Positions 1 through 13,312 of a stretch of DNA of 64,000 nucleotides are shown here, piece by piece. Origin of the DNA: Candidatus Adlerbacteria bacterium GW2011_GWA1_54_10 (GTDB lineage: Bacteria; Patescibacteriota; Minisyncoccia; Phycocordibacterales; SBAW01); the NCBI GenBank assembly GCA_001004665.1, contig LCRO01000003.1, positions 63,984 through 127,983 on the forward strand, read 5' to 3'. The first letter of the stretch is position 1, and each line of letters opens with the position of its first letter. The notes under the pieces were generated by a model. The model was not told the DNA's origin. It saw only the letters and a list, made by a program, of their open reading frames with translations, and did not search any database. The position numbers were made by a program, and so were the translations under genes.

Positions 1-385
1 CCATCTACCAAACCAACCACATATTCTGGACTAAGATTTTTCATTGAGTGGGTCCTTTTTCTTTCGAATACTATGACCCAGCTGACTTCTGACGCTGCGT
101 CAGATTCATTATACCCCGATTTTCGGGGTAACAGCGTCAGATCTCCACAGGTTACGAGCACTTCTGTTCCAAACATCCACTGCGGGATTTTCTTAGTTCT
201 TCCCTACCCTCACCGCCCACTGGTAGGTCGAACGCCCTTTAGTTTGCAGAGGCTGCTTTTTGCGTCCGGGCCCTCCGGCACTACCCTCACGGATATATGC
301 TTGCCCTTTTGCTACGCCTCGACGACGAAATCGAGGGTACGGATTTTAACCGCATAGAAGTGCGCGCTGCTGTGCGCGTTTATTG
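1..385 (-). other. Non-canonical segment at 3' end of 16S: probable insertion/intron (3' exon would lie beyond window start)
   Basis: Sequence after the 1390-region block lacks the near-invariant GCCCGTCACACC decoding-centre and GGATCACCTCCTT anti-SD blocks; contains an inverted repeat ctgacgctg...cagcgtcag. Confidence 0.4.
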
Positions 386-9088: not shown

Positions 9089-9858
9089 TTAGCTATAGGA
9101 AGAGCAATGACTTCGGCCCTGATTGCTCCCCTGACGCCGTCCGGCCATGTAAAGAAGATGGATTCCTGGGACTTTCGGTCTACGGAGAGAGCAGTGCGCG
9201 ACGCGGCCAGGGCGACTCCTTGCGCGTCAAAAAGTACGGCTCCGACCTCCGCCTCCGCGCCATAAGGCGAATCGTTTACAAGCGTCGCGTTGAGGAGCGT
9301 GCCATCGCCTTCCTTCAGCAAGACACCGGTAGTCCTGAGCGCGGGGAAATCGCCTTCTCGCGCGTGCAGCCAGTACGGCTCTCTTGTGAAGGACAGCATC
9401 GCCCGCGCCACGGTGCGGTTGCCCACGTCGATATTCGGCTCGATAATCGGAATTGTCTGCACCGGCGGCAAAAGGATGGTGCCGGTGCGCTCGGCTACAA
9501 GAAGATTGTTCCCATCAAAAAGCTGAAATGCGTAATGCACGTCGGGAGCATAGGCGCCCGCATTCTGGTTTTGCACGTAAGCGGCGGCTGTATAGGCGCC
9601 CTCGCCCCCGCTCATAGCGCGTACCCAAAGCACGACCGGCGCGCGCGCCTCCGCCTGGCACAGGAGCGCGCAGTCGCCGCCGCAGTCGACGCCCGACTCT
9701 CGACCGTTCTGCGCTCCGTCGCGGCAAGTGGGCACCGCGGTAAAGAAAGTTCTATAGATCCCGAACATTACGGCAAACCCAAAAACTGCCGCCACCGCCG
9801 CGTAAAGCAATTTCCTCCTGCCTCCCCAAGATAGAGCCATGGAGATATTGTATATCAA
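9085..9858 (-). CDS. Hypothetical membrane-anchored Cys-rich extracytoplasmic protein
   Basis: 257 aa; N-terminal TM helix; 4-bp overlap with downstream SEDS gene suggests co-transcription. Confidence 0.45.
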   Translation of the reverse strand: MIYNISMALSWGGRRKLLYAAVAAVFGFAVMFGIYRTFFTAVPTCRDGAQNGRESGVDCGGDCALLCQAEARAPVVLWVRAMSGGEGAYTAAAYVQNQNAGAYAPDVHYAFQLFDGNNLLVAERTGTILLPPVQTIPIIEPNIDVGNRTVARAMLSFTREPYWLHAREGDFPALRTTGVLLKEGDGTLLNATLVNDSPYGAEAEVGAVLFDAQGVALAASRTALSVDRKSQESIFFTWPDGVRGAIRAEVIALPIAK

Positions 9859-10299: not shown

Positions 10300-10442
10300 T
10301 CCCGACATAGCTACCCAGCGGTCCCCTTGGCAGGAGAGCTGGTAGACCAGCGGTCAGTTCCTTCCGGTCCTCTCGTACTAGGAAGAACTCTTCTCAAGAA
10401 TCGACGCCTGCAGTAGATAGGAGACCAACCTGTCTCACGCAT

Positions 10443-11160
10443 CTATCGACTCGAAACGAATCAAGTCTTCCCACATTACTGTGGGGATTGGACTATACCT
10501 TCATCCCTAAATTAGGGAGACCGACGTGTAGTCTCTACGGGGTCAGCACTCGCTTAAGGCGCTTCTTTGAGTAATTTAACTCACCGAAACGATCTATCAT
10601 TTTCATCAACTTTTTGAACTCTCGTTCAGACTTTATAGTCTGTCGATACTCGAGAATCTCAAGCATTAGCTTTATTTGCTCCCGTTTTAGAACCGAATGT
10701 GGTTCTACAGCAATTAAAAATTCTTTAATTGCATCGGTCTTGCCAATAATGTATTCGATAACTCCGTCACTGCGCTCCCGGATATACCCGGACCCCACAA
10801 GACCACATAATTTTTCGAATAGCTTTTTAGCCTTTTGCGATTGAAAAAATACCACATACGGCGCAACCTGAAATCCATACTTATAGGTAGAATTAGGTTT
10901 GAGCCGCACATAAATACTTCCGTCGCCGTCTAAAAAGCCGGCAAGATATGCTTTGGTTGTTGACGAAAGCGGTTGCATGACTTCCCTCGGTATTATCCTA
11001 CCATACGACAGGTTAGGATTCCACCGATATAGTCGGTTTCTCACTGTGGATTACTCCTCAGTGCCGCCGTGAACATTCTTAACAGTGTGGTTCCAAACGT
11101 CACCACGTTTCCTCGCGGGTTCAGACAGTTCAAATTCCAAATTTCTTTAGGACCTGAACG
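10443..11160 (-). mobile_element. Group I-type intron in 23S rRNA domain V (E. coli ~2570-2595 region) carrying a homing endonuclease ORF
   Basis: 5' exon ends ...GCTGGGTTCAGAC (rc 11161-11173); 3' exon resumes ATGCGTGAGACAGGTTGGTCTCCTATC (rc 10416-10442). Intervening ~718 nt has no 23S homology and contains the LAGLIDADG ORF. Confidence 0.7.
10535..11044 (-). CDS. LAGLIDADG homing endonuclease (single-motif, I-CreI-like)
   Basis: [20 protein letters not shown]... motif; ~150-169 aa; likely start at MQPLSS (10978). Lies inside the 23S intron. Confidence 0.85.
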
Positions 11161-13312
11161 GTCTGAACCCAGCTCGCGTATCTTTTTAAATGGCGAACAG
11201 CCATACCCTTGGGAGCTTCTCCACCCCCGGGATAAGATGAGCCGACATCGAGGTGCTCTAATGCGGATGGTCGGTTCACTATGTCCTGCTTTCGCACCTG
11301 CTCGGCATTTACGCCTTGCAGTCAAGCTCCCTTTTGCCATTACGCTATCGGCACGGTTTCCATTCGCGCCTAGGGAACCTTAATGAACTCCTCCGTTACT
11401 TTTTAGGAGGATAGCGCCCCACTAAAACTGCCCACCAGATAATGTCTCGAACGCGTTTTGCGCGTCCGGTTAGTACATACAATTTTACAGAGTGGTATTT
11501 CACTGACGAGTCCGCGGCGCCCGAAAGCACCGCCTCAACCTCTCCCACCTATGCTACGCAACAAAGCCGCATGCACAATATCAAGCTACAGTAAAGCTTC
11601 TGGGGTCTTTTCGTCTAACTGCAGGTAACCGGCATCTTCACCGGTATTGTATTTTCACCGAGCGGTACTCCGAGACAGTTCCCCAGTCGTTACACTATTC
11701 GTGCGCGTCTGAACTTACCAGACAAGGAATTTCGCTTTTCGCTTCCTGTGGGCGAAGGACCATGTCTTCTTCCGTTCTGGAAGCACGGCGTATGGTCTCT
11801 TATGTGAGCCGCGTGTTTTTTAGGACCTTCTACATATTCCTATGTAGAGAAGTAGCTTTTTGTGTAACTTTTTCGCTATTTACCCGATTCTGTAATAGTC
11901 CTAGTCCTTCCCTGCTCGATTGCTCAAGCAGAGAACCTTAGGACGATTATAGTTATCGCCGACATTCACCAGGGCTTATATAGCTCGGCCCTCCAATCTT
12001 GCGATCAAAGGACGGGCCATATTTGACCTTCTGGCATTGGTCAAGTGTCACCTCCTATACATCCCCTTACGGGTTCGCAGGAAGCTGTGTTTTTGGTAAA
12101 CAGTCGCCAGGGATACTTTCGCTGCGGCCGCGCTCGCGCGCGGCAGGCCTTATTCCGAAGGTACGGCCGATTTTTTGCCGAGTTCCTTGGAGTACTCTCA
12201 CTCGTTCGCCTTGCTCTACTCGAGCTGCACACCTGTGTCGGTTTGCGGTACGGTCGTACGACCCATATAGTTTAGAAGTTTTTCTTGGAAGCCTCTTCGC
12301 AGTGGTCCTCTCAGGCGAACCTGAAAGTGCCCCGATGCTTCGACAGCGCAAAGCGGATTTTCCTGCCTTGCAAGTCTTCGGCTACGGACGCCAATCCAAT
12401 AAGGCGCCACTGTTTATGTGCTCCGTCCCTCCATCACTGAGTCGCCGGTGTGGGAATATTAACCCACTGTCCATTACCTGCGGCTTTCGCCATCGGCTTA
12501 GGACCGACTAACCCTACTCTGATCACCGTTGAGTAGGAAACCTTGTGCTTTCGGCGTGCGGGGATCTCACCCGCATTGCGGTTACTTGTGCCTGCATTCT
12601 CACTTCGCAACGCTCCACTGCGGCTCACGCCTTCAGCTTCATCGCGGATGCGAACGCTCTCTTACCACTCGTCCTTTGATTGCTCTCAGGACGAATCCTC
12701 AGTTTCGGTACTACGTTTTAGCCCCGATTATCTTCGGCGCGAGATCTCTCGATGAGTGAGCTGTTACGCTTTCTTTCAATGATGGCTGCTTCTAAGCCAA
12801 CATCCTCATTGTCTTCGAGACTTCACCTCCTTGTGATGCACTTAACGTAGATTTTGGGACCTTAACTTGAGATCTAGGACTCTTCTCCTTTTGTACGGTG
12901 GAGCTTAGCCCCCACGTACTAACTGCCGCATAACGCAAACGGTATTCGGAGTTTGATAGGATGAGCGAGCTTTCGCCCTGTCTCATCCTTCCAGTGCTCT
13001 ACCCCCGTCTGCCAATCAATGCGACGCCAGCCCAAAAGCTGTTTCAGAGAGAACCAGCTATTACAAGGTTCGATTAGCTTTTCACTCCAACCCACAAGTC
13101 ATCCGAGAGTTTTGAACGGCTCAACGGTTCGGGCCTCCGCGCTATTCACGCTCGCTTTCGCTACACCTCCGCCCTAGCGGGCTTAAGTCTATGCGGCATA
13201 CGGTAACTCGCAGGCTCATTCTTCAATAGGCACGCCGTCGAGGCTTCGATTACTCTCGGCCTCTTCGACTCTTTGTAGACATATGGTTTCAGATCTATTT
13301 CACTCCCCTTCC

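Follow-up and report, generated by a model that had tools for sequence, protein, structure and literature searches.

We analysed a 64,000-nucleotide stretch, referred to here as the window, of contig LCRO01000003.1 (assembly GCA_001004665.1) from Candidatus Adlerbacteria bacterium GW2011_GWA1_54_10, a member of the Candidate Phyla Radiation (CPR, or Patescibacteria). The 23S ribosomal RNA (rRNA) gene in this window is interrupted, and we are highly confident that the interruption is a mobile group I intron at position L2593, in helix 93 of domain V, which carries in its loop L6 a gene for a homodimeric LAGLIDADG protein of the I-CreI family. This identification draws on the anatomy of the insert and its exact site, on covariation in its RNA helices, on a protein homology that extends to conserved catalytic and DNA-contact residues, and on the natural occurrence of uninterrupted targets.

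Rfam models place bacterial large-subunit, 5S and small-subunit rRNA genes in the window, all on the minus strand. The large-subunit match breaks off at 11117, and recognisable 23S sequence returns at 10439. Alignment of the joined flanks to Escherichia coli rrlH showed that the gene is interrupted by exactly 718 nucleotides (nt), from 11157 to 10440 on the minus strand, with the 5′ exon ending at the equivalent of E. coli U2593 and the 3′ exon starting at C2594. These junctions (11158/11157 on the 5′ side, 10440/10439 on the 3′ side) restore the universally conserved sequence ...GACCGU/CGUGAGACAG, and no alternative junction gives back conserved 23S sequence. The joined exons read CGAGCUGGGUUCAGACCGU/CGUGAGACAGGUUGGUC, against CGAGCUGGGUUUAGAACGU/CGUGAGACAGUUCGGUC in E. 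coli; the last 14 nt of the 5′ exon, UGGGUUCAGACCGU, occupy 11158..11171, and the first ten of the 3′ exon occupy 10430..10439. At least 120 metagenome contigs carry a 31-mer that spans the uninterrupted joined exons; the inferred ligation product thus exists in nature, and so does the endonuclease target.

A first-pass annotation, made by a model from the sequence alone, had described an insert of about 718 nt in the 23S gene between positions 10443 and 11160. The length was exact; both ends were 3 nt off, with exon CGU taken as intron at the 5′ end and intron AUG taken as exon at the 3′ end, and the correct limits are 10440 and 11157. Its placement of the site in domain V stands, in that the exon alignment gives L2593, and the peptidyl-transferase loop that it named does not: we take L2593 to lie in the hairpin of helix 93, beside A2602, and not in the central loop itself. 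The same annotation spoke of a hot spot used by introns of the I-CreI and I-CeuI types. This is upheld for I-CreI, whose site is L2593, the position of the window intron, and not for I-CeuI, an enzyme of the 1923 region; the enzymes of L2593 are I-CreI, I-MsoI and I-CvuI.

The ribozyme core and the endonuclease gene

The Rfam group I intron model (RF00028, Intron_gpI) matches the insert with 36.2 bits (E=1.7e-7), and its alignment is correct over P7, P3′, P8, J8/7, P7′ and P9, the 3′ half of the core. We assembled the full structure, P1 to P10, by hand using relatives. In a scan of one genome per species, 143 genomes held a relative of the encoded protein; 80 loci were kept, nearly all of them labelled Patescibacteria or CPR, and 67 had both exon flanks recognisable. 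All 67 introns share the junction ...GGGUUCA(G/A)ACCGU/.../CG(U/C)GAGACAGGU, with the exon end found in the window, and 66 of them end in G, as the window intron does at 10440 (omega-G). The guide motif GGCGG served as anchor for all 67. Covariation was assessed in an alignment of 45 intron cores (A2), from which L1 and the open reading frame (ORF) had been removed and which was produced by plain MAFFT, not fitted to the structure.

In this alignment 91.1% of cells are paired in the hand-built P2-P9 model; sliding the 3′ partners by 1-3 columns lowers this to 33-41%. Double-sided changes occur in 28 of 51 pairs (305 cells), and none of 500 shuffles matched the observed values on any measure. 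The pairing figures are conservative, because register shifts of P2 and P8 in the MAFFT alignment count against the model. Compensatory changes fall mostly in P2, P3, P8 and P9, with few in P4, P5 and P6. P7 is invariant in the 45 sequences and so uninformative for or against the fold, and for P1 covariation is impossible because both of its strands are invariant.

Read along the minus strand, the intron begins with a hairpin and an L1 element that are treated below. The internal guide sequence CACGGCGG (11071..11064) follows; its GCGG pairs with exon CCGU to form P1, in which the G at 11067 makes a U.G wobble at the 5′ splice site. The GGCGG guide is invariant in A2, and relatives with a short L1 adopt the canonical U.G P1 as their local fold of minimum free energy. 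CACG of the guide sequence can pair with CGUG of the 3′ exon as a putative P10. P2 (11042..11063) is a hairpin with a GUAA tetraloop and double changes in eight of nine pairs. The 5′ strand of P3, ACCGAC (11032..11037), pairs with GUCGGU (10520..10525), with 97.8% of cells paired and double changes in four of six pairs. The P4-P5 domain (10987..11027) comprises P4 (UCGGUG/UACCGA) and P5 (AUCCUA/UAGGAU), has 95.4% of cells paired and four pairs with double changes, and carries a conserved loop, (A)ACCUGUC(G/A)UAUG. P6 is formed by GGGAAGUC (10979..10986) and GACCCC (10539-10544), its closing pair being U-A in 28 sequences and C-G in 16.

The 3′ half of the core lies beyond the endonuclease gene. 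The 5′ strand of P7, GAGACU (10530..10535), agrees with the Rfam consensus, and its pairing G[A]GACU/AGUCC, with a bulged A beside a G-C pair, is what we take to be the classical guanosine-binding arrangement. The 3′ strand of P3 stands directly 3′ of P7. P8 (UCCCUA-AUU-UAGGGA, 10504..10518) has double changes in five of six pairs and is supported by the Rfam alignment. J8/7 (UGAAGGUAU) together with the 3′ strand of P7 (AGUCC) covers 10490..10503; the Rfam alignment sets this segment against ...UgAAGAUAUAGUC..., and UAUAGUCC is invariant in A2. P9 (CCCACA-GUAA-UGUGGG, 10470..10485) has 96.9% of cells paired and double changes in five of six pairs. An additional P9.1-like hairpin near the 3′ end, GACUUGA-UUCGUU-UCGAGUC (10448..10467), was read from the sequence; it is specific to the window intron and missing in most relatives in A2. 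With a covarying core, a U.G splice site and a terminal G, the insert has the structure by which group I introns are defined. The group I assignment of the first-pass annotation is thus borne out by the hand-built model, the covariation and the partial Rfam match, and the catalytic core whose lack it had named as evidence against an intron is present.

The coding part of the insert is equally well defined. The mechanical ORF (10535-11044) would give 169 residues from a GTG at 11044; we rejected this start, as homologues are 145-148 residues long and begin at the ATG at 10978. From this family-supported start the gene (10535..10978 in L6, TAG stop at 10537-10535) encodes 147 residues with one LAGLIDADG motif, in keeping with the single-motif protein of about 150 residues that had been predicted. 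The Pfam search that had been proposed as a check gave LAGLIDADG_1 (PF00961) at E=3.2e-11, its 44.5 bits standing well above the cut-off of 23.1. Among structures in the PDB the matches are I-CreI (E=7e-21), I-MsoI and I-CvuI, which supports the I-CreI-like character that had been proposed. The alignment with I-CreI runs over residues 10-140, with 131 residues aligned and a single one-residue gap. D19, Q46 and K98 correspond to the catalytic D20, Q47 and K98 of I-CreI and are invariant in the family, and K27, N29, Y32, Q37, R67 and R69 correspond to the DNA-contact residues K28, N30, Y33, Q38, R68 and R70; Q26, Q44 and S32 of I-CreI are replaced by R, V and T. In a sample of 28 homologues 43 columns are invariant. 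Given its single motif, the protein is expected to act as a homodimer, by analogy with I-CreI and I-ShaI.

Gene and ribozyme share sequence at both ends of the ORF. Six nt ahead of the ATG, within the P6 5′ strand, stands a GAGG motif that probably serves as a Shine-Dalgarno sequence. At the other end, the closing codons (L-T-P-stop) supply the 3′ strand of P6, and P7 opens with the G of the stop codon. The near-invariant C-terminus of the family, ...NYSKKR.KR.LTP, is explained by this arrangement, because the end of the ORF doubles as P6 and P7 strands of the ribozyme.

The protein family has at least 1331 members of 145-148 residues in public data, and those with a named source are almost all from CPR bacteria. 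The exact 147-residue protein occurs on at least 24 contigs, including GenBank LCRR01000003.1 (assembly GCA_001004755.1), and the intron is 100% identical in independent assemblies in the European Nucleotide Archive (ENA). Five loci with a CPR-type intron and endonuclease (L009, L024, L037, L041 and L056), all from third-party-annotation metagenome bins, are labelled Gammaproteobacteria, Bdellovibrionales or Draconibacterium; they are probably mis-binned short rRNA contigs, and the labels not those of real hosts.

By analogy with characterized introns and enzymes of this kind, we infer self-splicing, endonuclease activity and homing, and we propose the following mechanism. The intron would be transcribed within pre-23S rRNA, and its GGCGG guide would pair with exon CCGU, so that a U.G wobble forms where the exon ends. 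Two GTP-initiated transesterifications, catalysed by the P3-P9 core and its G-binding P7, would then ligate ...GACCGU to CGUGAGACAG, the terminal G marking the 3′ splice site. The 147-residue protein would be translated from its own ATG behind GAGG, from either the precursor or the excised intron, and its dimer would cut the intron-less allele CAGACCGTCGTGAGACAGGTTGG. If I-CreI is a guide, the cut would fall across the central GTGA, a few bp beyond the insertion point on its 3′ side, and produce 3′ overhangs of 4 nt. Double-strand-break repair from an intron-containing copy would spread the intron, and an allele that already has the intron would be immune, its target being interrupted by the insertion.

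The 5′ splice site and alternative explanations

The window intron differs from most of its relatives in the region between P7 and P3′. In 48 of the 67 introns this region holds two hairpins, P7.1 and P7.2; in the window intron and 18 others GAGACU runs straight into ACACGUCGG (in the window GAGACU is directly followed by ACACGUCGGU), and the P7.1/P7.2 by which subgroup IA is recognised are lacking. Because P7.1/P7.2 are present in those 48 relatives, the comparison of sequences suggests that the L2593 family is IA-like and that the lineage of the window intron is a reduced form.

A set of 17 introns, made up of the window intron, 14 others without P7.1/P7.2, and L014 and L026, has a long L1 (58-121 nt) that carries the motif ACNGUYUGARYCC. 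This motif and the bases preceding it pair with exon positions -14 to -1 and intron positions +1 to +9, giving a near-continuous helix of about 23 bp over the 5′ splice site, in which C(-3) is always mismatched and U(-1) is paired with A. In the window the pairing element is ACUGUCUGAACCCG (11116..11129), complementary to exon -14 to -1 with the same mismatch at C(-3) and the same U(-1)-A pair; the first 28 nt of the intron form a hairpin (UCAGGUCCUAAA-GAAA-UUUGGAAUUUGA, 11130..11157) that runs on without a break into this helix. The isolated 5′ region of the window intron folds into the exon-intron helix with -59.4 kcal/mol (z=-6.9). In an alignment of the 17 sequences 93.5% of cells are paired, against 22-52% in slid controls, and double changes occur in 10 of 22 pairs. 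Covariation is perfect between exon position -6 and the base opposite (A-U in 11 sequences, G-C in 5), and at intron +1 the pair is variously A-U, U-A, C-G and G-C. The 17 sequences were chosen by the motif, which inflates the exon-side pairing and leaves the covariation at -6 and at +1 to +9 unaffected. Local folding pairs U(-1) with A in 16 of the 17 introns, those with the exact motif; L002, with a variant motif, pairs likewise.

The exon-intron helix and the canonical 4-bp P1 are mutually exclusive, as both claim exon positions -4 to -1. We considered whether the long hairpin over the 5′ junction could itself be the catalytic P1, with a non-canonical U-A pair, and rejected this: GGCGG is invariant, gives the canonical U.G, and is the sole possible partner in relatives with a short L1. 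We tentatively suggest, as a possibility that we would not yet favour, that the helix tethers the 5′ exon or transiently masks the splice site for the time that transcription of the 444-nt ORF and of the ribozyme's 3′ half takes, and that it could in this way offset a short P1 and the lost peripheral elements. A limited check of the literature found no such exon-intron element described for L2593 introns.

Several observations weigh against the identification of the insert as an active group I intron in a working gene. The Rfam score of 36.2 bits is below the gathering score of 50, so that the covariance-model check proposed in the first-pass annotation succeeded over the 3′ half of the core and fell short as a whole; the model also misplaces P3-P6, because the ORF splits the core. 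In a single scan the relative L005, which has P7.1/P7.2, gave a large-subunit match and no group I match. We consider that the sub-threshold score reflects a limit in the sensitivity of the model and not a property of the sequence, because L005, with its fuller structure, went unmatched and because a survey of CPR 23S inserts, using a cut-off laxer than the Rfam gathering score, typed only 45% of them as group I (Tsurumaki et al. 2024, PMC11270868). P1 is just 4-5 bp long, and the local minimum-free-energy fold of the window ties the 5′ splice site and the guide sequence into alternative hairpins. Without P7.1/P7.2, unaided self-splicing could be weak. In the protein, R51 of I-CreI aligns with an alanine (A50), next to which stands an invariant K49. 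Finally, 83 nt, the counterpart of E. coli 2413-2494 with GGGGAUAACAGGCU and the A2451 part of the peptidyl-transferase ring, are missing from the 23S gene in the window; the gap lies at 11255/11256, about 100 nt upstream of the intron on the minus strand. If this deletion were real the host gene would be dead. The missing 83 nt are present in four contigs (L082-L085) that are otherwise 99.9-100% identical, and because of these near-identical copies we regard an assembly error as the most likely cause.

The lack of P7.1/P7.2 raises the question of whether the intron still splices efficiently by itself or has come to need a protein helper, either a host factor or a maturase function of its own LAGLIDADG protein. 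Maturases are known among LAGLIDADG proteins, and the short P1, the local fold that masks the splice site and the presence of P7.1/P7.2 in most relatives would all fit such a need, as would the report that the P7.1/P7.2 of cyanobacterial L2593 introns stabilise the G-binding pocket (Haugen et al. 2007, PMC1995217). Yet every helix of the core, including the G-binding P7, is intact and conserved, and the reduced form is shared by 19 independent introns and is evidently viable. Moreover, group I introns without P7.1/P7.2 commonly self-splice, and to our knowledge I-CreI is not a maturase. We therefore consider dependence on a helper unlikely, while giving it more weight than any other alternative discussed here. 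A decaying relic, in which splicing is kept and the endonuclease is inactive, so that the element is immobile, is less probable still: the substitution at R51, the disrupted ORFs at six related loci (L029, L032, L045, L053, L060 and L068) and the degenerate and the ORF-less versions known in CPR (PMC11270868) point that way, but the ORF in the window is full-length and keeps the catalytic Asp, Gln and Lys as well as the DNA-contact residues, the 43 invariant columns speak for strong constraint on the family, and identical copies stand in many independent assemblies alongside uninterrupted targets.

It seems very improbable indeed that the insert is excised by RNase III as an intervening sequence, with no ligation and a 23S rRNA left in fragments, or that it stays in the mature molecule as an expansion segment. 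Intervening sequences exist in bacterial 23S genes, probably in CPR as well, but the known ones are short and lie at other helices (PMC11270868). The duplex of about 23-25 bp over the 5′ junction could in principle be a substrate for RNase III, but it includes exon nucleotides, and cutting it would destroy the rRNA. Neither proposal accounts for a covarying group I core with a U.G splice site and a terminal G, or for an endonuclease of the type that belongs to exactly L2593, and 718 nt kept in helix 93 near A2602 would presumably be incompatible with ribosome function. We considered group II and archaeal bulge-helix-bulge introns and, with no test aimed at them, put them aside, as the group I core explains the whole non-coding part of the insert.

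Other features of the rRNA loci

The 23S gene in the window carries a second insert, of 198 nt and without an ORF, at 11737-11934 on the minus strand, placed exactly at E. coli 1931/1932. This position, site 23IS7 in the CPR survey (Tsurumaki et al. 2024, PMC11270868), is recognised as a hot spot for introns. The last base of the 5′ exon is U, simple mapping gives no terminal G, and the 3′ junction carries a duplication of AGCGAAA; Rfam gave no group I match for this insert. Part of it, 100 nt (11814-11913), is missing from LCRR01000003.1 and present in ENA contigs. The same contig LCRR01000003.1 (L082), from the same population, has two further gaps: about 105 nt are missing within a protein-coding gene (window 9390-9494), as is a portion of the 23S exon that separates the 83-nt region from the L2593 intron (window 11216-11255). 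These gaps look like local assembly deletions, and the public copies of the locus disagree with one another.

On the minus strand the rRNA genes follow an unusual order and are not linked: the 23S gene (from 13892 downwards), the 5S gene (10023-9910), about 8 kb of protein-coding ORFs, and the 16S gene (from 1653). The 16S gene breaks off after ...CUUGUACUCAC, at about E. coli 1397, and the 16S regions 1390-1407 and 1492 were found nowhere in the window. Here, in the 3′ part of the gene (window 1-384), an insert sets in that extends past the start of the window, with the first part of another LAGLIDADG ORF, MKNLSPEYVVGLVDG..., inside it; the insert fits the CPR class at 16S position 1400. Rfam reports the segment 338-1653 as covering positions 1-1533 of its model, which we rejected as an artefact of local alignment. 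About 375 nt upstream of the 16S gene, directly after the ORF at 2106-2684, Rfam identifies RF00519 (suhB/mmgR) at 2028-2105 on the minus strand, with 62.1 bits against a gathering score of 41. In the element, a hairpin is accompanied by a UCCUCCC stretch and by a stem that, with its run of U, resembles a terminator; RF00519 is an alphaproteobacterial small RNA family and is unexpected in a CPR genome.

Known systems and significance

Group I introns at L2593 with I-CreI-type enzymes have been known in chloroplasts since the early 1990s. The window intron shares its insertion site with the Cr.LSU intron of the Chlamydomonas reinhardtii chloroplast 23S gene, which encodes I-CreI, and with the introns of I-MsoI and I-CvuI. 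The protein is of the same type as I-CreI, a single-motif LAGLIDADG protein of about 150-165 residues, although it is shorter and lacks the C-terminal tail of I-CreI, and its host is a CPR bacterium and not a chloroplast. We take the I-CreI site to be CAAAACGTCGTGAGACAGTTTGG, from which the target in the window differs at three positions only. From what is known of Cr.LSU, the window intron is smaller, at 718 nt, and differs in lacking P7.1/P7.2.

Closer in host are the L2593 group I introns of the cyanobacteria Synechococcus sp. C9, S. lividus C1 and Thermosynechococcus elongatus (Haugen et al. 2007, PMC1995217). These introns, of 744-748 nt, likewise interrupt a bacterial 23S gene at L2593 and carry a single-motif LAGLIDADG gene, and, like the window intron, they have short P2 and P5 helices and an ORF that extends into the helices of the core. 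In contrast to the window intron, they have a P7.1/P7.2 extension of about 65 nt, a feature described for them and for phage Twort, and their endonucleases are longer, at 159-189 residues as against 147 (PMC1995217).

Among CPR bacteria, 82% of 23S genes were reported to contain inserts, and LAGLIDADG_1 genes are listed at position 2593 (Tsurumaki et al. 2024, PMC11270868). The corresponding class, 23IS12, agrees with the window intron in clade, site, protein family and single-domain architecture; the intron is a member of this class, and nothing essential differs. Together with the named sources of the relatives, this survey supports the statement in the first-pass annotation that CPR 23S genes harbour such introns. 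The insert class appears to have been first noted by Brown et al. 2015, and in the passage in which Tsurumaki et al. cite that work (PMC11270868) CPR rRNA inserts are said to be removed from transcripts. The only CPR enzyme tested biochemically is I-ShaI, a single-domain protein from site 23IS7 that resembles I-CeuI and for which dimerisation was shown.

The intron is therefore correctly identified and nothing new in kind: it is an ordinary selfish element of an already known and well-documented type, on record in cyanobacteria since 2007 (PMC1995217) and in CPR bacteria since 2015 and 2024 (PMC11270868). For sequence annotation its presence has a practical consequence, in that pipelines will truncate the 23S gene, as the Rfam large-subunit match ends at the intron. 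The CPR L2593 enzyme is an uncharacterised natural homologue of I-CreI with a slightly different 22-bp target, and the more than 1300 natural variants of its family could interest meganuclease engineers. For the bacterium, the 23S gene would need RNA splicing to yield a working peptidyl-transferase region, and the covarying helix over the 5′ splice site poses a small, testable question: how minimal group I introns retain their 5′ exon.

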